Shown here: piece after piece, positions 29,501 through 49,290 of the stretch | Numbering within the stretch: the stretch's first letter is position 1 | Layout of the letters: every line of letters starts with the position of its first letter | Source of the DNA: Schmidtea nova | Taxonomy: Eukaryota | Assembly: GCA_044892505.1 (NCBI GenBank) | Contig: CM097883.1 | Coordinates: 70,556,001 to 70,620,000, forward strand | Length of the DNA stretch: 64,000 nucleotides | Direction: 5' to 3' | Translations under genes and position numbers: made by a program | The notes under the pieces: generated by a model | Seen by the model: only the letters and a program-made list of their open reading frames with translations | Database searches by the model: none | What the model was told of the DNA's origin: nothing

Positions 29501-29732
29501 CCCGATCCTTGATTAATAATTTGGTGCTGCGTTTTCCTTCTGTTGTTCGAATTCCATCTTGAATTGTATTGCTTTTCGAATTTGTGCCAGTGCGTTTTTT
29601 GTTGATTCTAAATTTAAATTCTGCTAGTTTTATATATACATTTCGAGAACTTAATTCTCTTCATCAAGTGCTACTCAATCTTCCATTCAAATATAATGAA
29701 GATTCAAATATAATGAAGATTCAAATATAATA

Positions 29733-30932
29733 ATGATGAAGAGAATTAAGTTCTCAAAATATATTGTGCAGAATATATATTTGGATTGGCGTTTGTTTTT
29801 AATTATTTTAGTGCCATGTATGTTGTGTTATGTATTGAAGAAAAATAATTATCCTTCAGTTGTTACGGTATTCTTTGAAAGTCTGTATAGGAAAAAGTTT
29901 TTATATAAAGAGATTGAAGATGTTCAATTTATTGACCAAAGAATTTGGATTGACGTTCTAGAATTGAAGATTGAAAGGCGTAACCACCTATCCTATGTAT
30001 TGCCTTTGATTGGATTACTAATGTGTAGAATGATAGATAATTTTTATAATTCTAAATGTATAGAGTTTTATATTGCCAAATTAGTATTTCAATTAAATGA
30101 TGAGGTTTACATTCGTGCTGATTATTTCTCTTATTCTATTATTTATGAATTAATTGGTGTGATTGTTGGCAATTCTAAGTTTTCTGTATTGCTTTTTGTT
30201 CTGTTCTCGTTTATTTTTTCAAATGTCATGGGTGAAATGCCACATACATTGGAAAAGACTGCCCGTCTTCTCTGATTTCGAGTTTCAGAGCATAGTCAAT
30301 TAATGGGATTTAGCGTTGTTTTTAGTCATATCGATGTTTGTGAATATGTAAGTGTGAGAGTTTTGAGTGCGTGTGTTTGCTTCATTTTTTGCGGTTTGAG
30401 TAAACTAACTGATGTGTTAGTTGACGATGTTTATTTTTTTCTTTTGATTTGTGTTCTATACTCGTTTAATATTTCAAATGTCATGGGCGAAATGCCACAT
30501 ACTTTGGAGAAGACTGACTATCTTTTCTGTACTCGAGTATTAGAGCATTTTCAGTTGGGGATTATAGATTTTGTTTTTAATCATTCTGTTGTTTATAAAT
30601 ATGATTTAATGGGATTTAGCGTTGTTTTTAGTCATATCGATGTTTGTGAATATGTAAGTGTGAGAGTTTTGAGTGCGTGTGTTTGCTTCATTTTTTGCGG
30701 TTTGAGTAAACTAACTGATGTGTTAGTTGATGATGTTTATTTTTTTCTTTTGATTTGTGTTCTATACTCGTTTAATATTTCAAATGTCATGGGCGAAATG
30801 CCACATACTTTGGAGAAGACTGACTATCTTTTCTGTACTCGAGTATTAAAGCATTTTCAGATGGGGATTATAGATTTTGTTTTCAATCATTCTGTTGTTT
30901 ATAAATATGAAAATATTTATAAATATTCCTAG
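29733..30932 (+). pseudogene. hydrophobic membrane-protein-like ORF pair (family X) with internal 306-bp tandem duplication
   Basis: ORFs 29733-30275 and 30303-30932. The motif NVMGEMPHTLEKT occurs three times. 30303-30608 and 30609-30914 are near-identical in-frame repeats. Confidence 0.6.
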
Positions 30933-31114
30933 AAAACAGAGAATATTATATTTTTAAAATTAATTTATTTAAATTTAAAAAGATTTTAATCGTTTAATTT
31001 TTTGACTATTTTATAAAATTTATAAAAATACATTTTATTTTAAAAATTATTATTAATTTGTTTGATAAATATTTTTATTTGATTTATATTTGAATGGAAG
31101 ATTGATTAGCACCC

Positions 31115-31183
31115 GATGAAGAGAATTAAGTTCTCGAAATATATTGTACAGAATACATATTCGGATTGGCGTTTGTTTTTAAA
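31115..31183 (+). pseudogene. truncated second start of family X
   Basis: GATGAAGAGAATTAAGTTCTCGAAATATATTGTACAGAAT repeats 29735 onward for about 65 bp. Confidence 0.7.
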
Positions 31184-33840
31184 AATAATTTGTTTTAATT
31201 ACTAATTTTCCTATTAGTGTGAAAATTTAAAAATATTCTAAAAGAAGTCAATTTAAAATTACTACTAAGTTTAATTATTATTAAATTGACTAATTAAATT
31301 TATTGGATTAATAATTTTCTTAAAAATGTAAAAGATTTGAAATATTATACTTAAATTATTAAAATTAACTAAAATATTACATAATTAATTATAATTTATG
31401 TTAATCCTAATTTAATTACTTTAAAATATAATAAAAATACTAACATAACCAAAATAACCGATTTTGACTTCTGTTTTCTCCATATATTAAACATTTTGTG
31501 GTTTAAAGGCAAATATGTTGTTTAAATAAGGTAAAAACGTGAAGAGGCAGAATTCGAAATAGTTTTGTGGGATAAATAAACTTTTGTCTATTTCCATTTA
31601 ACAACAAGCTATCGCGGCATTATGATGGGAGAGCGAATCAAACTCGGAGACAGGCTGAAAGATTTTTCTGGTAATGATGACGTGTCATCATGGCTGAAAA
31701 AATTCAAAATGATGGTCGATTTACAAGCCTTGGGAGAAGTCACCAAGATATTGCCTCTATTTCTCGAGGGACCAGCCTTTGCGGTGTTCGACCAGATGCC
31801 AGATGAATCGAAAACTAAATGGGAAGAAGTTGAGAGGACCTTGCTGGAGGCGTTTGGCCTTGATAAATACAAGGCATGGGAGCAGTTGATCTCGACAAAA
31901 TTGAGGGGTGAACCAGTTAATGTTTTTCTGTCAGAGATTAAACGATTGGCAGCACTTGCAGGAGTTAATACAGACGAAGTCGTTTTGAGGGCATTCATCG
32001 TAGGCCTGCCAACCGCGGTGTCAATTCAGTTGCGGGCGAGTGGAAAAATTCAAAAAGCATCGATAACTGAGATCGTTACTATTGCGAGAGCGATTATGGC
32101 AGAGAGATGATGCGTCATGTGCGGTGGTGTCTTTTAAAAACACAAGGTTTCAAAAATCCACCAAAGACGTAACGTGTTGAAATTGCAAAGAAGTTGGACA
32201 CGAAGCCAGAAATTGAACAAAAGCGGGGAAAGAACAAGGGGAAAGATATGTGCCGGATCTTCCTCCGAGACAAATATAAATGCACTCCCAACGATGCTGA
32301 TCAGGGTCAATGGTAAATTAACCAATGCTCTAATCGACACTGGCTGCTCGCAGTCCGTGATCAGAAAAGGACTCGTAGAGTCGAATCGTAATGTGCATCT
32401 GATTACAACTACGAATGGCCGAAAAATATCAATCTTAGGTATCGAATTTATGGGTCGTGCTTTTAATGTTCGTGTACTAGTTCTTGAAGATGTCGTTGGT
32501 GACTTCGGATTGATTGTTGGGATGGATGTGTTGTCGAAGGGTGTGACAATCAACATCTCGTCAAGTGGGATTCAATTAATTGCAGCAAGCACTGTCGAGT
32601 GCGGTAGTCAAAATCACACTTCCGATGTTGATATTGAAGGTCCAGATACGACCACAATTGATGATAGAGATTTTGTAGCTTTCTTTAACAAAACGCAAGG
32701 GTTGGTGAAATGGAAGTGGTGCTTTCGATCAAGAAGTTCAGATGTGGATCGAAGAGGGTTGGTTGATTCCATTCGATGGCGAGGTGGAGTTTTGTTACCA
32801 TGGATGACGGTGAAACAAGATACAAAAAACAAAGTCAAACTGGTGCTTAATTATCGACATTTAAACAACTTCATTGAGAGTCATACAGGCAGCACATTGG
32901 TATGTGACGACAAACTAAGGAGCTGGCCGTAGAAAACGGGTAACCAAGTGATGCTCGACCTGTCAAAAGCGTACTTGCCGATCCATGTAGATAGAGAGCT
33001 GTGGCAATATCAGGTGGTCAAGGTTGCTGGCCAACTATACTGTCTAACACGAGTCGGCTTTGGTATGAATTGTGCGCCTAGAATCATGACTGTAATTTTA
33101 CAGAAAGTACTTAGTATGCGAAATGAAATACAGAAGGCAACCGATAACTATGTGGATGATATAATCGTCGATGTTGACCAGATATCCGTTGATGAAGTTA
33201 TAAATCACCTTTCTCGTTATGGACTAAAGACGAAACAGCCCGAATCAATAGAATCCGCAAGAGTTTTGGGATTATAAATACAGTCTGATCACAAGGGAAG
33301 ACTCATTTGGTTTCGAGGAAACCACATTGACCTACCCAAGGTTGACCAAGGTTTGTCAAAACGTGATTTGTTCTCTTTGTGTGGCCAGTTAGTCGGGCAT
33401 TATCCCGTATGTGTATGGCTTCGAATTGCGTGCAGCTTCATTAAACGGTGCAGTGAGGGAGAGTACTGGAATGACCCAGTTGGTACAACGGTGCAAACAA
33501 TGATGAATGACTTACTAGAGCGAGTAAAAGTTCAGGACCCTGTCCAGTGAGTCTGGAAGGCGAACGTACGCGAAGAAGTGGTACTTTGGTGCGACGCAAG
33601 TTCGATCTGTTTCGGAACATGTATCAAGGTCAATGGCCAAATAATCGAGGATGCTGCGTGGCTTCGTAAGGCCGATGATTCGGCTCATATCAAGGTCGCT
33701 GAGTTCGACGCTGTGAAAAAAGGGGTCAACCTGGCACTGTGATGGGGAACATGCAGGCTTTGTATAATAACCGACTCGGCAATAGTAAAAGGTTTGCTGA
33801 ATTGTATTTTAACAGATTTAAGTAAAATCAAGACGCATGG

Positions 33841-34717
33841 TGTGGTGACATAATTAATATGTAAATAAATATTACATTTATAATATTCATAAAATCTTTA
33901 ATATTTATATTTATACTAAATATATATTATTAAAAAAGAAAAAAACTTTTGTTTGTTTTTATGTAAATATTTGAAAAATAAACGACATCTTGATTTAGTT
34001 AATTTTGTTTTTTACATTGAATATGAAAATTTTCTTTATGTTTTCCCTAAATGATTATAAAGTATTTTGTGAAGATAACAACCTTAACAATAAAGTGGAA
34101 AATTGCAATGATAATCATGAATTAAATCCGGATAATATTAGTAGAGACATAAAATACGGCATTTTGCCAAGTCTTCTTTTAAATTTCGAATTTCATACTG
34201 TAATGCGAGTTAAAGTTGCGAGCTTTGATAAATTCGAACCAATAACTGAAGATATCCTTTCAAGGGAAACTTGCTCAAAAATTATTGGTTTGTAATTCAT
34301 TTGCAAAGATTTCTTATTTGAAGCATTAATTCATGCAATTGTTACAATGGTTGAAATAGATCTAATAAATGATGAACAGACCGATATGTTGAGCAGCCAT
34401 GCTGAGTTTATCACCAATTATAACGAGAGGTGCGATAATTATAACAACAGCAGTAGTTCATGTCTAAGCACAGCTACCTTAATGAGATCACACAAAGGGT
34501 ACCCCCTTTGACATCCATTTGCAGTGATATTAAATATCAAATCGGAAAACATCCAAAGATAATTTCCCAGCCTGCTGGCCGCTATCAAACACAACGATTT
34601 AGAAAAACTCAATGTCCAACTGTTGGGCGAATTTTATAATCCCTAACGATACATGGTTGGACTAACGAGGAAATAATCGAGGCAAACAATATAATGATGG
34701 TAAAAGTCAATCCCACA
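33841..34717 (+). repeat. 5' LTR of inner element (877 bp)
   Basis: Starts TG right after the TSD and ends CA right before the PBS. 34157-34717 is repeated at 38780-39341 at about 94% identity. Confidence 0.85.
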
Positions 34718-34718
34718 A

Positions 34719-34736
34719 TGGTGTCAGAAGTAGGAT
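34719..34736 (+). promoter_or_regulatory. primer-binding site complementary to a tRNA-Leu 3' end
   Basis: TGGTGTCAGAAGTAGGAT, 1 nt after the LTR. It matches the known TGGTGTCAGAAGTGGGAT tRNA-Leu PBS with one mismatch. Confidence 0.88.
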
Positions 34737-34901
34737 GTGATCTATATTATATATTTATATTAAAAAAATCATATATTTATATTTTTTCACAAATACTAAT
34801 AACCACATTTTCCCCCTCCCCAGTGCGTGTCATTTATCTCCCCCTCCCCGTTACTGAAAGAGCCTCATTATTTTCCTGTCCTCGCCAAGGCTACAGCGCA
34901 A

Positions 34902-35117
34902 ATGAGAGACTTCGCACGCAACTTATCTCGCACATTTCCACTTTCTCTAACCTTGCACGATTTAGAACGCTTCATTTGCTCCATTTGGCACTTGAAATTA
35001 AACACTTTTTATTTCTCACACATAGGTTTTAGCGTAGTGAACGATGGGGAACCATTAGCCAAGGTATTACCGCCGGGAGGAGTTGTATACGTGACATTTA
35101 GATTACGTGGAGGCATG
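34902..35117 (+). CDS. ubiquitin-like domain ending RLRGG followed by Met, upstream of Gag
   Basis: MRDFARNLS...TLHDLERFI...GFSVVNDGEPL...VYVTFRLRGG|M. It is 71 aa from ATG 34902 to GG 35114, with about 14 positions matching ubiquitin by eye. Confidence 0.6.
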
Positions 35118-38100
35118 AATGAGAGTGATCTCACCACCACCTTACCACCTCTATCACCTGATGCCTGAAATCCTTACATTTCCACTTCATCGACAGGCAG
35201 CACGAGTATCAACACCTCTACAACCCCCAATATTTTCACGTCATTTTTTTAGATGTAAATTGATCACCGAATGCCTGGTTATTTATTCTCGAACGATCCT
35301 TCCACGCCAGAAAAATCGCGACTTCACAGCAAAAGTTCGACCAGCTATTCTCGTCTCTCCCCACTGAACTCCTTTCCAAACTCGCGCATCTCTTACCAAA
35401 CCTTTTTTCCGAAGTTGATCCTTTTACTTCCCTTAAAAAGGCCATAATCAATAACTTCAGAGAACCAAAAGCAGAAATATTTTGTAAATATTTCAAGACC
35501 CAACACCTAGGTTCCAAACGACCATCCGAATTCTTGAAGCAAGCCATAGACAACTTAGAATCGCTACAGCAAGGCATTACTCAAGATAACGCCATTCTTC
35601 GTCGCTTTTTCCTTTCTGCCTTGCCTCAACAAACACAAGCCATCTTAGCGGTTTCCAACTCCACTTCGCTCGCCGATATCGCCAATATGGCCGATAAAAT
35701 AGCCGAGGTTTCTCATCAGCCAAATAAAGGTTTCTACAACCAAACATCGGTAAGAACACCCATGAAAACTCCAGTTTCTACGGACCATTCTTTTACTCCT
35801 CTCTTATTGGCAATCGAAAATCTCACCAGAAAAGTTCAGAAACTGTAGGCAAGGTCTACATCAACGGACCGAAGGCGACTGAGATCATAGTCGCGTGACA
35901 ACACCCGTGATAAAAGTCCCTGTATATGTTATTATCATCAGAGGTTTGGAGTTTCCGCACACAGTTGCCAGATTGGGTGTAATTATAGAAATGAGAAGGC
36001 GGATTGCAAACAGATAGACCTCTGCATATACCATGGAAAGTTCAATAAAATGGCCAAACACTGTCTAGAAGGTTGCAGGTTCTTCCAAACTTTTCAAGAA
36101 CCCAGCGACAACAAACAATCAAAATACTAGTACTGCCATCATTTCATGCGGCTGAAGTCGATGGTCATCTCAATTCATCTTTTTCCTCTCCCTTTTTATT
36201 ATGAAGGCATACCACCAAATTCCTGTCGCTCCATCTAATGGTCAAAAAACAGCTGTCATCACTCCTATAGGTCTCTTCGAATTCCTGCGAATGTCTTTTG
36301 GTTTAAGGAACGCTGCACAAACATTCCAGAAACACATCGATCACATATTATCCGGACTAGATTATGTAGTAGCCTACGTCGACGACATCTTAGTCGCATC
36401 GCCCGATACCGAGACACATAAACAGCATCTATCTGGACTCGTCAAAATCTTAGAGCAACATCAACTCAAGATAAATCATTCCAAATGTCAATTCTTTCAA
36501 ACAAGTGTAAAATTTCTGGGACACACCTTATCTGCCGACGGAATAGCTCTACAAACTGAACGTTTAAATTCCATCAGAAATTTTTCTAAACCGGAAACTG
36601 TAACGCAGCTTCGCAGCTTTTTAGGCGTAGTCAATTATTGCCACAGGTTCATACCTAGGATATCTGATATTCTTGCTCCTTTGACTTCGCTCAGCTCGGG
36701 ATCAAAGCAATCTGTTATAAAATGGACAGATAAATCTGACGCTGCATTCATCGAAGCAAAAAAAGCACTAGAATCAATTCAGACTTTGGCTTATCCAAAG
36801 TATTCCCTACCTTTCAGTCTGACCACAGATGCGTCCGACGTCGCAGTTGACGCTGTGCTAACACAGGAACAAGACGGTATAGTTCGACCTCTTGAATTCT
36901 TTTCTAAGAAGTTATCCGAAACGCAAACCAAATATTCCGCGTTCGATCGGGAACTTTTAGCCATATTTCTGTCTATTAGACATTTCAAACATTTGCTTGA
37001 AGGTAGATCCACTACGGTTTACACCGATCACAAGCCGTTGGTTCATATAACCACTATGAAGGATCCCTCTCCGAGGCAGTTACGTTTAATTTCTTTCATC
37101 ACCGAGTTCACCAGTGACATCAGACACATAGCGGGTAAAGAGAACATTTTAGCTGATTTTCTCTCACGAAGTACCAACGCTATCTCCTTGGAACCCCAGT
37201 TTACAAGTTCCACTCTGCGAGAGAATAAACCAACCGAAGTTGATCTACAATATTTCCAACATCATAAATCAAACGTAGACGGCATTGATTTTGACTCCTC
37301 ACTTTTAGGAACTCTTAGACCTATTCTTGGATCCGAGCTTCGAAAACAGGCATTCCGTGTAGTTCATGACTTACATCACCCTGGCTCGACCGCCACCTAT
37401 AAGCTGCTAAGAAACCAAGTCGTCTGGCCCTTTATGAGACGAGATAATAAAACATGGGTTAGTCAGTGTTTTAAATGCCAATCAAACAAAGTTACTCGAC
37501 ACGTTAAACCACCGCACATGCACTTTCCAACAGGTGATCGATTTGATGTCGTTCACATCGATCTTGTCGGACCTTTGCCAATAGACAATAGTTTTTCGTA
37601 TCTTTTAACAATGATAGACAGGAAGACAAGATGGTGTGAAGCAGTTCCTCTACGTTCTGTCTCAGCAAACATAGTCACTGAATCTTTTATTTCGGAATGG
37701 GTTTCACGATATGGAATTCCCAGACAAATTATTACCGACAGAGGAGTGCAATTAGAATCACAGCTATTTGTCTCTTTATCGGAACAGCTTGGCATCAAAG
37801 GACTCGTTCGACTGCATATCATCCGCAGACGAACGGCCTCATCGAGAGATTTCACCGGACACTCAAGCAGTCACTACGTATACTCTCTCGAAACTATCGC
37901 TGGACAAAAGCTTTGCCTTTTGTGCTATTGGGTTGGAGAAACACACCATCCAAGACAATCGAATCGTCCCCAGCTCAATTACTCTTCGGTACAAACACTA
38001 CAGTTCCCAACGAGCTCATCGACCTCGGGGAACAACCAACAATCGAAGAACTCAGTACCGCCAGACGTCATTTCCTTGAAATTGATAGCAATCCAATGTT

Positions 38101-38779
38101 TTCGTCAGCAAACGCCGAAAAACCTTTTATACCGAAATCTCTATCTTCTGCTAAACCCATATGGATTCGTGCTATCGTTGATTCTGCTTTAAAGCCTAGA
38201 TATACTGGACCATTTCGACTACTTAGTATAGTCGGGAACTATGCAACAGTCGACATTAACTGTTCATCCGAAACAATCTCTCTCACACGTATTAAACCGG
38301 CATTCGGACTTTCAAAATTCCTCGATCCCAGCACCAGAGAGCTTGTCCCTGCTTCTACAAACAGTTCAGCAGACCAATAAAACATCTGTCAATTTGAGAT
38401 CACCACTAACCCTTCCAGACATGGATTCAACTCTCCCTTCACCGATTGTGCTTACTGAAAATACTTGTTCGCACGAGGCAGACATATCTTCTACGGATAT
38501 AATCAATGAGCCTTCTAGTTCTGATGACAAAAACACCACCGGTAGCCCGGAAACAATCGGTTCACCGGCTAGCAACAAAACTTCTAGACCACTTTCAATT
38601 TTGAAAGAATCTCCTATGGCTCATTCCAAGATTGCTTCTACTACAAAGCATCGCGTCTCAATTAACCCATGGGTTCGCAAGCGCCGTATAGGAGATAATC
38701 CTAACGCTCCAACTAGACTGCATCGAATACTGTGAATATACTCCTCCTTCTTTTCGATCTATTTCTTTCCTTTTACCTT

Positions 38780-39341
38780 ACGGCATTTTGCCAAGTCTCC
38801 TTCTAAATTTCAAATGTCATACTGAAATGCGAGTTAAAGTTGCGAGCTTTGATAAATTCGAACCAATAACTGAAGATATCCTTCCAAAGGAAACTTGCTC
38901 AAAAATTATTGATTTGGAATTCATTTGCAAGGATTTCTTATTTGAAGCATTAATTCATGCAATTGTTACAATGGCTGAAATGGATCTAATAAATGATGAA
39001 CAGACGGATATGTTGAGCAACCATGCTGAGTTTATCACCAATTATAACGAGAGGTGCGATAATTATAACAACAGCAGTAGTTCATGCTAGTAGTTCATGC
39101 TAAGTTCATACCTAAGCACACCTTACCCCCTTTGACATCCATTTGCAGTGATATTAAATATCAAATCGGAAAACATCCAAAGATAATTTCCCAGCCTGCT
39201 GGCCGCTATCAAACACAACGATTTAGAAAAACTCAATGTCCAACTGTTGGGCGAATAATATACTCCCTAACGATACATGGTCGGACTAACGAGGAAAGAA
39301 TCGAGGCAAACAATATAATGATGGTAAAAGTCAATACCACA
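38780..39341 (+). repeat. 5'-truncated 3' LTR of inner element
   Basis: Homologous to 34157-34717. Lacks the first ~316 bp and has no PPT upstream. Confidence 0.85.
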
Positions 39342-40796
39342 CATGGCATAGCCGAGATGCTCGTTCGACTCCGATTAGGCATTAAAAGAAAGCTATAACT
39401 TAGCTTTATTAGTTGATTTTATCTGTTCATCAAAAAATAAGGCTGACGTCCTAACTCGTGTAAAAAGCACGTGGTTAAAACCACGACAGCAGGCGTTATG
39501 TTGCGCGTTGCAAGAGCAGATATCTGAGATTCATAATCAACATCATTTTGGTGTCAATAGAATATGGTATTTCACGAAGATTCAAAATGATCAGATAACG
39601 AGAAAAGACTGTTGTCAGAAATTTGTCAGATCGTGTGACCGTTGTAAGGCAATTGATCCTGGCCCATTCGATATCAACATGGTTCACTCGAGGTTCAGGA
39701 AGTGTGGCGTAGACTTGCATGCGATATTACACATTACAATAATGATTGTTATTTCACATTGATAGACTGTGGTCCCAGCCGCTACTCACTGTGGAGGAAA
39801 ATAAGATCGGAAAACGCAAGCGAAATTTGTATAAACCTCATGCAGATATTCAGAAAAAGAGGAGCACCGGGGGAGCACCGGAGGTGCACCGGAGGAGCTT
39901 CTACTCGACAACAGCCCGGTGTTTCGATCAAACAAGCTTGTTGATTTGTGCAAAAGTTGGAATGTGCAAATTCATTTTAGATGCGCGTATAGACCACAAG
40001 GCAACATGATTATCGAGAGGAACCATCGCACCATCAAGCGAAATGCAGTAAGGTGTCGGACAGATCCTTTAACAATGGTGCAATGGTATAATCTGGCACC
40101 GACTGACGGAACTGATGAGGAATCGTGTCCCCACATAAGATTGTTCAAATATCCGTGGAAACAAGAAGTCGGCATCAATACAAGAGGCATACAGTGAGGG
40201 GACAGGGTTTACGTTAAACCCTCAAATGTCAGGTGCACTACTGAATGGCCAATCGGTGTGGTTACTAATCCGGTGGAGGATCATTAAGTCGAGGTTAACG
40301 GTGTTCTACGACATATAAAAGATGTTCGTCGCGTGGAGACACCTGAGTGTGAACCCGTGGAAAGGCAACAATCCACTTGTGTACGGCATCGTCCTGAATA
40401 TCTGTATAATTATGATTATGTAGATGACTACACCAGCGACGATCAAGAGTCTGTTTCGAAAACTACCAGGGCTGATGATCTTGAAATCAGGGCGGAATGT
40501 GGTTTAAATGAAAATATGTTGTTTAAATAAGGTAAAAAACGTGAAGAGGCAGAATTCGAAATAGTGTTGTTGTATAAATAAACTTTTGTCTATTTCCATT
40601 TAACAATAATCACTATTTCAAATGATAATGATGAAATTATTCCAATAATTATAAATTCATATTCAGNNNNNNNNNNNNNNNNNNNNNNNNNNNNNNNNNN
40701 NNNNNNNNNNNNNNNNNNNNNNNNNNNNNNNNNNNNNNNNNNNNNNNNNNNNNNNNNNNNNNNNNNNNNNNNNNNNNNNNNNNNNNNNNNNNNNNN

Positions 40797-41206: not shown

Positions 41207-44200
41207 TTATAATAAAATACTACATAGCCCTCTTTGTTTTAAGCGGAGCAAAATATTTTCTCCAATCGTTTCATATGAATTTTCGCTTCTTTCTTCTGCT
41301 ATTATAGCAGGTTTTACTCGTTGCATATTTACTGTAACTTCGTTTGAGTCTTTGCTTATTGTTACAGTGTTCCCTTGTATTGACACGACTTTGTACGGCC
41401 CACTGTATCTTGGTTTCAAGTGATGCCTTCCGGTGCTTCTAACCATACTAGTTTTGTCGATGTCCAATTTCGCGGAAAATTGCTTTTATCTGCTTTAGGA
41501 TATCTTAGATTTGGATTGGTATTCAGTGTATTGTAATTTTGTCGAGCCTCTTCTAGTGCCTCCTACTCTTTTTCGCAAGAAGCTGAGAATATATCTACTG
41601 GTAGCATGGTGCCACTACCAAATAACATTTGCGTTGGTGATATGTTGGTTGGTGCGTGTGGAGAGTTTCTCCAACCGAGTAGTACCATTGGTAAGGCTTT
41701 TGTTCATCTGCACTTCTGTGTCATGCATCTTAATGTCGTCTTCAAAGAACGATGAAATCTTTCAATCAATCCATTTGATTGCGGATGATATGCAGTTGTA
41801 TGTATGTATTTTACTCCAAAGATTTTAACTAAAGTATTAAAAATATTACTCTGAAATTGGGTGCCTTGGTCGGTTATAATATGATTTGGAATTCCATACC
41901 TTGCAAACCACGTGTTTGTTATGACTTTTACAATAGTTTCTGCCGATATTGATGTAACTGGAACTGCTTCCGGCCAACGAGAATATTTATCCATATGAGT
42001 TACTAGATAAGTGAATCCTTCCGATGGTGGTAGTGGTCCCACAATATCCACATGCAGAACTTCAAATCTATTTCCTGTGGGAAAACTCTGTATTTGGGGC
42101 TTTAATCGCTTGTGAATTTTATTTGCTTGACACTCGATGCAACTGCGGCACCACTCTTGAATATATTTTTTTTTCATTCCAGGCCAACATGCTCTGAGTT
42201 TTGCCAGCTGATAAGTTACATTGACTCCAGGATGATGATGTTGATGTACCTCCCTTAGTTCTTTAGATAAAATTGGCTTAGCTGTCCCAGATATTGACAT
42301 ATCGTAAAATATTCCATCTTCTTCTATAACCTCTTTAAACCTTTCTACATCTGTCTTCTCAGAAGGTTTTGCTCTGATTCGGTCTTTCTTGAGATCTCCT
42401 TGGAATTGAATGGAATTTATCGAAGCTTTTGATAGACAATCTGCTACTACGTTATCTTTACCTGCGGTATATTTAATATTCAGATTAAATTCAGATAACA
42501 ATGAAATTTGACGTTGTTGCCGAGGAGAAGGTTTCTTCACCTCTAACGCATGAACTAAAGGTTTATGATCTGTAAATATTGTAAATGATTTTCCTTCTAG
42601 CATGTAGGAAAAGTGTTTTACGGCTTCTACTATTACTAAAAGGTCTCGATCGAATGCTGAATATCGAACCTGGGTAGATGATAATTTCTTTTAGAAGAAT
42701 TCTATTGGTCGTATTTCGCCATGTATTGTTTGATGTAACACGGCTCCAATTGCTAGGTCAGGCGCATTTGTTGCCAAAGATACTTCTGCTTTGCTATCCG
42801 GGAAAGCCAGTGTTTGAATCTGTGCTAATTTTGATTTCACTTTTCAAACGCTGTTTTCGCTTCCTCAGAATAGATGATGGTTTCCGATTTCTTTCCATTT
42901 ATCAGAGACGATAACGGTGACAATATTTCTGAAGCCTTTTTAATAAATTTATGATAAAAGTTTACCATTCCGAGAAATGTTCTTAATTGCGTTACTGTTT
43001 TTGGTATCTGCATATTTTTGATTGTTGCTAAACGTTTTGGAATGGGTGCCACGCCATTTTCCGATATCATGTGCCCGAGAAATGTAATTTCCCTTTTAAA
43101 AAATTGACACTTTTCCATGTTAATTTGCATATTGTTAACATGCAATTTTTCTAAAACGTTCATTATATGACTCTCATTTTTTGAATAATTCTGAGAGGAT
43201 ATTATCACTTCATCCACGTAAGCAACCGCGAAATCTGCTTCACGTTATACTTTGTCTATGTACCTTTGGAAAGACTGAGATGCATTCTTTAACCGAAATG
43301 GCATTCGTAGAAACTCGAATAATCCAAACGGTGTTTCCACAGCTGTTTTTTCGATATCCTCTTCCGCTACCGGTAACTGGTGATACGCCTTCTTTAGGTC
43401 ACTTTTTGAGAATACTTTGCACTCACTAAATATATGTTATATGTCTGATATTAAAGGCATTGGATAAGCTTCTGATTTTGTGAGTCTGTTTAATGCTCGG
43501 TAGTCTCCACATGGTCGAATAGATCCGTCTTTCTTTGTTACAATGTGCAACGGCAAAGACCACTCTGAGTCCGATCGTCTGACTACTCCATCTCTTTCTA
43601 ACTGTCGGAACTCTTCTTCTGCCGCTTTCCTTCTTTCGGAATTCAGCTCTCTGACTTTACAAGTAACCGGTGTTGTCGCTATGGTTGGAATGTGATGCTC
43701 TGTTTTCCTCATATCGTTCATTGTTGTTGATCTTGTCACGCAATTCGGAAATTTATTCAATAATGCTTTCTCCACACTTATGGGAATGTTGACCCTATTC
43801 TCTCCAATAACGTTAACTATTGAGGTGCCATTTTCCTCTGATTTATTTCTATCAGTTAGCAGTCAATTTCTTTTGCAGTCTACCAATATATCAAAGTGGG
43901 CCAAGAAATCTTCTCCTAAAATAGGTGTCATCTTTTGAGCAATTGTGAAAGTCCACGTGAACTCTCGCTGAAGTGGTATCATGAAAAAGGATATTGTACG
44001 CTGTCGATACACTGGTATAATTGACCCGTTTGCACGACTAAGTTTTGAATTGGTGTCCCACCATCTGGTGGAATGATTGACAAACATGAACCTGAATCAA
44101 TTAAAAAATCAAAGTTTTTATTTGTACCCACTACATTAGATTTTATTTTGAAAATACTCATGATCGATGAGCTTCCTGAAGTTAGTTTTTCCTCAGGAGG

Positions 44201-44880
44201 TTCTGCCTGTTTCCCTGCTTTGATAATTGTGACTTTTAGGAACATCCAGAAATACATTTAATGGCCTTTTCCCAAAATAGTGCATGGTATATGCATATTG
44301 ATTTAATTTCTTCATTATTCTTTTCCTTGTATTCACAACCAATAACGCATTTCAGTGCATTGTTTTTAAATTTTTGGTGAAAGTAGCATATTAGTGGTTT
44401 TGATTTCCGGCGATCTATATCTAAAGTTTTGGTTCGTTGAATAATTGTAACGCACATTTCCTCCGACGATATCTCTTCTTTGTTTCCAATGCTGTATATT
44501 TCTCGGACATTTATTTCCATTAGCTTGTCTGCGATCTTGGCTAGCTCATTCACGTCTTGTTGTGGATTTAATGTCAGCATTAGTTGCATTTGCTTTGGTA
44601 ATATTCTTAAAAATAATTGCTTGATTAAAAGATCATTGTTGGCAGAACCTTCTTGAATTTTATTTAAATCGCTTCTGAGTTTTTTTGTGTATTCGGATGG
44701 CTTTAACGTGCCTAGACTTGGCGTTTTGAAATAGAACTCTATCAAATTGCTCTGTTGAGGTAGGTATTGTTTCTATATTGCAGACTTTAAGTTTCCATAT
44801 GGCTCTTTATCCGCGAGTATGGATTCTAGTTTCTCTTCTAACTCGTGTAAGAGGCTGTTAGGTAAAGCTTTGTTCATTAT
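41207..44880 (-). mobile_element. degenerate Ty3/gypsy element 5 (partial gag, PR, RT, RNaseH, IN; no LTR seen)
   Basis: FLIDSGS, SEWSLPLHIVTKKDGSIRPCGDYRALN, YVDE, FTDHKPL, LHVDIVGP, ITDQG, NGLIER and YSGPY in minus-strand ORFs. Related to elements 2 and 4. Confidence 0.92.
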
Positions 44881-48714: not shown

Positions 48715-49290
48715 ACAATCATATTAATTTTTGTGAATATAAAAATGTGAAAAATTTGATTGCGCGTGTTTGCTTCGATTTTTGCAATTTAATTAAATTA
48801 ACTGATGTGGTTGCTGACGATTCGTATATTTTTCATTTGACTTTTATACTCGTTTAATTTTTCAAAAGTCATGGGCGAAATGGTACATATTTTGGAGAAT
48901 ACTGACCGTCTTTTCTGTACTCAAGTTTTAAAGCATTGTCAATTGATGATGATTGGTTTCTTCTTCAATCATATTGTTATTTATAAATATGGTAATATTT
49001 ATAAAATATTCTTTAAAATTTTTTTTTTTAAAAATATGATTCTTAAGATTAATTTAATTAAAATAAAAAATAATTTTATCGTTTTAAAAGTTTTGATTAC
49101 TTTAAAAATTTTTATTGCATTTTTTTAAAAATTATGATTAATTTGTTTTAAAATTGATTAATTTGATTTATATTGAAAATGTTTACTGAATATCATCAGA
49201 CGATGAAAATGAATTTCTCTAAATATATTGTGCAGAATATAATTTTGGATTAGCATTTGCTTTTAATTATTTCAATGTCATATTTTTTGT
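48715..49290 (+). pseudogene. diverged paralogue of family X (3' part, spacer and next 5' start)
   Basis: KLTDVVADDSY, MGEMVHILENTDRLFCTQVLKHCQ and YKYGNIYK, plus ATGAAAATGAATTTCTCTAAATATATTGTGCAGAAT at about 49203. All parallel 30303-31183. Confidence 0.8.

Follow-up and report, generated by a model that had tools for sequence, protein, structure and literature searches.

A decayed Ty3/gypsy retrotransposon with a diverged ubiquitin-like domain before Gag, and putative host-derived starts in the LTRs of its relatives

The window, a stretch of 64,000 nucleotides of Schmidtea nova contig CM097883.1, contains a decayed LTR element of 5.5 kb (33841-39341, plus strand) of the Ty3/gypsy type with a DUF7041 Gag (Table 1). 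Among the hallmarks of such elements, TG...CA LTRs, a 5-bp target-site duplication, and a primer-binding site (PBS) were present in the window, and a polypurine tract, missing from this copy, was present in the copies L081 and L082. The PBS proper, TGGTGTCAGAAGTAGGAT, occupies 34719-34736 and is presumably of the tRNA-Leu type; the element itself may be Mag-like. In pol, the order is reverse transcriptase (RT), RNase H, and integrase in the window, and the complete order protease-RT-RNase H-integrase was observed in a sister family, family D. About 805 bp containing the protease and the start of RT are gone near 36200, and about 420 bp are gone at the 3′ end, a loss that took the polypurine tract along with the initial 314 bp of the 3′ LTR. 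With these two deletions, and with stops and one frameshift in gag, the copy in the window is dead. The direct repeats were also considered as non-LTR repeats, and this was rejected, the 3′ LTR being simply truncated.

The element is inserted in another plus-strand gypsy-like element (31497-40609; Retrotrans_gag, protease, and RT), which has terminal repeats near 31497 and 40498. Contigs from DNA runs of one study show the empty insertion site at 33840. A decayed gypsy element with a Gag that appears related by eye lies on the minus strand at 41704-44772, and its gag front and PBS were looked for upstream and not found. Tandem repeats of 255/306 bp were observed at 29658-31182, with a further copy 18 kb away at 48830-49266, and the window shows a strong GC skew at 14-30 kb.

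Table 1. Features of the LTR element and its insertion site in the window
Feature	Position	Strand	Remarks
Target-site duplication, left	33836..33840		CATGG, 5 bp
5′ LTR	33841..34717	+	TGTGG...CA; AATAAA at 33977
Reading frame within LTR	34023..34511	+	From ATG 34023; broken in window copy
Piece derived from ribosomal protein S5 (uS7), in 5′ LTR	34550..34684	+	In frame of PBS ATG; one stop in window copy
A + PBS	34718..34736	+	Reads ATG GTG TCA GAA (MVSEV)
Leader, PBS to ubiquitin-like domain	34737..34886	+	Out of phase in window copy
Ubiquitin-like domain (Ubl)	34887..35114	+	C-terminal RLRGG
Ser/Thr/Pro-rich linker	35115..35243	+	First residue Met; stop at 35166-35168 in window copy
Gag	35244..36130	+	DUF7041 capsid-like helical region, coiled segment, Cys/His-rich C-terminus; frameshift and stops
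pol remnant	36156..38380	+	RT, RNase H, integrase
3′ LTR remnant	38779..39341	+	94.4% identity with 5′ LTR over the overlap
Target-site duplication, right	39342..39346		CATGG

The initial annotation had described a ubiquitin-like segment of 71 aa that opens with ATG 34902, 165 nt past the PBS, and ends in FRLRGG (35097-35114) directly before another ATG. All these landmarks were found in the sequence, and the ubiquitin-like character of the segment was upheld; its extent was not, as the domain consists of about 76 aa. Because strand 1 of the predicted fold begins four codons before ATG 34902, this ATG lies inside the fold, and translation must therefore start upstream for the whole fold to be made. 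A splice site or spliced leader that would supply a Met before the domain (a pyrimidine run and AG near 34889) was considered as well and is not needed, because the frame continues upstream in other copies.

A Pfam search with the single window Ubl gave no match, including none to ubiquitin, and all five of its matches in the PDB were weak and of the ISG15 type (best E 0.07). No PDB match was obtained with a profile of 14 close copies, and no Ubl match with the single Ubl sequences of two related families, E and F. A 16-row profile covering nine families, aligned over 76 columns almost without gaps, matched mono-ubiquitin in register with E values of 5e-6 to 1e-4. From the same alignment, AlphaFold2 predicted the beta-grasp fold that had been anticipated (pLDDT 90.6), with strands at residues 2-8, 11-17, 41-45, and 66-71 and a helix at 23-34, and the best Foldseek matches of this model were ISG15, ubiquitin, and SUMO chains (TM about 0.7-0.77), the fold matches to ubiquitin chains having 11-20% identity. 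Of 144 candidates in the AT-rich, 1.25-Gb genome (G000), 80 matched the segment. The ubiquitin-like pattern, with these genome matches, the ISG15-type and mono-ubiquitin matches, and the beta-grasp model, is beyond chance, and the predicted structure supports the segment as a divergent ubiquitin-like domain. It is not ubiquitin proper, judging from its sequence: identity is low, and the Ile44 patch and Lys48 are absent, Ser and Phe standing at positions 44 and 48, respectively. A model for a sister family had the same order of strands and helix, a linker of about 30 residues with low confidence after the Gly-Gly, and a separate helical capsid-like region, which suggests that the linker is likely flexible.

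Among the 20 best copies, the Gly-Gly was kept in 16 and RLRGG in 11. Natural copies have the Ubl and Gag in one frame, contrary to what would have refuted the initial annotation; in L017, for example, both lie in a single open frame of 309 codons. The string VSTPLQPPIF, previously regarded as Gag-like, proved to be an off-frame reading, since in L017 the Ubl frame itself continues into the capsid region. Instead of the two frameshifts reported earlier, the window copy has the stop in the linker, one frameshift near 35244-35250, and further stops. The idea of a captured Ubl as the leader of Gag held insofar as the Ubl precedes Gag in frame, but the Ubl does not stand at the start of the protein. 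It forms a spacer within the protein, preceded by a leader that varies and whose frame begins in the 5′ LTR. Together with the PBS, the A in front of it creates an ATG in frame with Ubl-Gag (184 nt before ATG 34902 in the window copy), and in many cases the frame is already open in the LTR, hundreds of bases ahead of this ATG.

In the family of the window element, the LTR frame is a mosaic. In the copies L004 and L005, the frame that starts at the counterpart of ATG 34023 reaches the PBS uninterrupted over 231-241 codons, and a source gene for the first part of the frame (up to 34511 in the window) was looked for and none was found. The uS7 piece is present in both subfamilies, and its PDB matches to uS7 (E 7e-9) were obtained with the matching LTR frame of L081. 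An RRM label for subfamily B was discarded, the match being weak (E 0.42). In this old family, the PBS and the Ubl are in phase in 12 of 30 copies, which is the chance level; the most frequent distances between them, 185 and 186 nt, span single-base runs.

A DUF7041 Pfam search of G000 and its follow-ups yielded four more Ubl-Gag families (D, E, F, and H) as well as several without a Ubl. The LTR frame of family E is short and runs into the PBS; 13 of 21 copies keep it in phase with the Ubl. In family F, the Ubl ends in LLKGG and looks SUMO-like by eye; the leader between the PBS and the Ubl is 2 kb long and contains a SAPS-domain piece and, in one copy, filamin repeats (L086:1035-3249 and L087:1759-2961). 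The Ubl-less families (L023, L042, L038, and L048) share the Gag family and have a short leader without a Ubl. Their gag, too, begins at an ATG lying slightly within the LTR and continues across the PBS, so that replacement of U5 would change the start. Leaders of database relatives reach about 876 residues, and in some of these proteins histone H2A, 5′-nucleotidase, cohesin-HEAT, and CNOT1/Rrp44 pieces lie in frame before the Ubl. A known host domain was detected in the leader of two of the 24 relatives scanned (22 with a Ubl), and a PBS-like peptide inside the leader of 10 of 42 Ubl-bearing relatives.

The origin of the LTR frames was clearest in family D. This family is young, as 19 of the 23 LTR pairs measured have an identity of 97% or more, and three of its copies (L076-L078) have whole gag and 1148-codon pol frames. 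The Ubl ends in YRMRGG in 26 of 27 copies examined, and the PBS ATG is in phase with it in 21 of 27. The LTRs consist of a common 5′ part and a short tail, with one of four types of sequence (A-D) in between. Type B is 99.4% identical to the 5′ UTR and first approximately 103 codons of a PP2A scaffold gene (L158), both introns of which, one in the UTR and one in the coding region, are precisely absent. Type D lacks the intron of its source gene (L184), and type A matches a single-exon gene (L161); no source gene was seen for type C, and no element sequence in L158 and L161. By comparison with the host genes, three of the LTR types were shown to originate from spliced host mRNA. A SAM50 label for type D received no support from Pfam or PDB. 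L161, which lies with its neighbours at G000:C1:73.1-73.3 Mb, belongs to a large family of single-exon genes with no confident Pfam match.

The three captures begin at −1, +7, and +12 nt from the LTR AATAAA, and short shared words were found at their junctions. Of 92 distinct LTR places in family D, 89 keep the captured host ATG in frame with the end of the LTR, 88 of them free of stops; types A, B, and D were fetched by protein searches, which favour open frames, and the 92 LTRs are not 92 independent tests because about four captures, with three to four length variants, underlie them. All length variants of types A, B, and D are multiples of three. In L095, two tandem captures are separated by a remnant of the old LTR end, and the frame is kept. 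Another copy (L110; G000:C2:250844628-250853628) combines a 5′ LTR of type A with a 3′ LTR of type B, suggesting recombination between copies. In L078:7740-9998, the captured frame of the 3′ LTR continues for 753 codons into the flanking DNA; sequence next to 3′ or solo LTRs may thus acquire a start.

Six database proteins supplied further Ubl families, so the comparison set comprised 11 families. All 11 end in Gly-Gly, with an identity of the Ubl body of 15% (4-35%) versus 43% for the capsid region. Among the best 150 of 6061 representative matches, of which 30 begin too near the capsid region to be judged, 42 have a Ubl in front of that region, 26 of them recognised by profile and 16 by eye. 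Every one of these 42 ends in Gly-Gly, and the following residue is Ser in 18, Met in 6, Ala and Asn in 4 each, Gly and Thr in 3 each, and one of four others in single cases; it is never Pro. Lys48 of ubiquitin is absent from all 16 aligned rows and Ile44 is present in only two, which argues against a role in chains or as a degron. When three families were pooled, Ubl variants in at least three copies were richer in silent changes than singletons (21:18 vs 153:55, p 0.02), whereas this contrast was absent from the leader (p 0.39); family by family, the test for the Ubl was not significant (p 0.18-0.20). These counts suggest purifying selection on the Ubl in pooled data only, and none on the leader. 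The apparent selection on the tail across very divergent families fits cleavage by the host.

In a tree of capsid sequences with 125 rows, from which 30 records too short upstream were left out, 43 Ubl rows fell within a branch of 46 and four elsewhere, so that six changes are required. Several origins of the Ubl were considered on this account and set aside, as a single origin was not rejected by the AU test (p 0.29; three more rows dropped). One protein of the main clade, P0031, has a PBS-like start and no Ubl. Two others, P0034 and P0049, carry near-canonical ubiquitin (Pfam E 1e-22) and are close kin of proteins with diverged Ubls, hinting at a fresh re-capture of ubiquitin.

We consider it fairly probable, from the sequence comparisons above, that these elements use borrowed host starts in the LTR, that the frame runs through the PBS and the Ubl into Gag, and that a host deubiquitinase (DUB) cuts at the Gly-Gly. 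The captured part would be U5, so the element RNA would start near AATAAA and present a host 5′ UTR and AUG almost at once. Ribosomes would then produce a leader-Ubl-Gag protein, and a host DUB would cut it after the Gly-Gly, giving Gag a constant start with any leader. Such cleavage is likely in view of the conserved tail; USP enzymes contact the Ile44, Ile36, and Phe4 patches of ubiquitin, according to the available text of PMC10611586, and with Ile44 mostly lost, cleavage by ordinary DUBs is not assured. The capture itself may occur during first-strand synthesis, when reverse transcriptase would jump at short matches to a co-packaged mRNA and then to the 3′ end of the element RNA, a model that fits the position of the captures adjacent to AATAAA. 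Out-of-frame captures would block Gag and die out, and the Ubl spacer likely came first, making captures tolerable. A broader version, in which start-snatching is general and ongoing, with U5 repeatedly replaced by host mRNA 5′ ends, the old DUB-cut spacer as an adapter that renders in-frame captures harmless, and perhaps a self-like disguise, is plausible, and here we lean slightly to the side of doubt.

Alternatively, the Ubl might be cut and act as in ribosomal-protein fusions, helping folding or setting the N-terminal residue. Translation of Gag would then start at the ATG of the PBS or further on, and the LTR would carry its host pieces as mere passengers, which stay in frame because an out-of-frame upstream ATG is harmful. 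The in-frame ATG at the LTR/PBS joint, the lack of detectable selection on leader residues, and the family-D copies that have a stop or shift in the LTR and an open remainder agree with this. However, the PBS codon is TTG in many family-E copies, and the first in-frame ATG met upstream of it is then one within the LTR; ATG 34902 falls within strand 1, and in-frame deletions and the two-capture chimera L095 keep the LTR frame open. We therefore regard passive host pieces as an unlikely explanation.

Lower still we place two further explanations. The released host fragment, together with a Ubl bearing a free Gly-Gly, might serve as a decoy or be conjugated to host proteins, or the captured RNA might hide the element from small-RNA silencing. 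The genes captured do belong to the core set of the host (PP2A scaffold, uS7, filamin, SAPS domain, and H2A), and P0034 and P0049 have near-true ubiquitin, but the captured pieces are unrelated to one another and swapped within one young family, Ile44 and Lys48 are lost in most rows, and the leader is without amino-acid selection, which makes this quite improbable. Equally little credence is given to a Ubl that stays attached to Gag as a tag for structure, solubility, budding, or degradation, or that is removed by the aspartic protease of the element. The drift of the Ubl body far from ubiquitin would suit a retained tag, but an uncut tag needs neither the Gly-Gly found in every Ubl seen nor the avoidance of Pro next to it, and Lys48, again, is absent. 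Removal by the element's own enzyme would be disfavoured by the preference of retroelement proteases for hydrophobic sites. Borrowed starts in the LTR combined with host cleavage at the Gly-Gly remain the preferred reading.

Ubiquitin insertions of pestiviruses act as a site for host proteases. The cytopathogenic pestiviruses (BVDV NS2/NS3; PMC13517609) likewise have a host-derived Ubl unit before a viral protein, but the insertions treated in the accessible part of that source are recent, near-identical, and found in single isolates, whereas the Ubl described here is old, fixed in a clade, about 15% identical apart from its tail, and located before a retrotransposon Gag. In ubiquitin-ribosomal protein fusions and FUBI-eS30 (PMC10611586; see also PMC8354635), a diGly-ended Ubl also precedes another protein and is removed by USP enzymes. 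FUBI is stated in PMC10611586 to be 36% identical to ubiquitin, and in these fusions the Ubl forms the N-terminus of a host gene product; in the elements, it has diverged further and lies inside the protein, after a leader that varies. The captures in family D resemble LTR-mediated retroposition (Tan et al. 2016, PMC5131818), in which spliced host mRNA is joined to LTR elements at short shared words, giving multi-gene mosaics, and family D showed the same combination of intronless host sequence and short shared words at the junctions. In that work, the retrocopies replace internal ORFs and give non-autonomous loci, whereas the captures here lie inside both LTRs, begin near the mRNA 5′ end, and are in frame with Gag, and gag and pol are whole in L076-L078. 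The giant gypsy element Burro/GYPSM1 (PMC6431247) also has Ubi2/SUMO-like and host-like domains in its polyprotein; there, Gag comes first and the SUMO-like motif follows downstream as one of several accessory domains, and the available text of that report describes neither a diGly junction before Gag nor an LTR capture. No description of the Ubl-Gag/LTR-capture layout was found in the literature consulted, which did not extend to Repbase/Dfam, subscription papers, and supplements. Each part has a precedent, and the element is a Ty3/gypsy element with an apparently undescribed way of expressing Gag.

If the preferred reading is true, it would represent a new route of Gag expression, in which maturation is left to the ubiquitin machinery of the host, acting as the protease, and the 5′ ends of host mRNAs can be exchanged for one another as starts. 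The Ubls, with 15% identity and a fixed tail, would provide a natural test set for the minimal features of ubiquitin that a DUB needs. The LTR would be a steady producer of host-gene mosaics, which are copied to both ends of the element and left behind as many solo LTRs, and such mosaics would bear on the origin of new genes, on self/non-self recognition by small RNAs, and on gene annotation.
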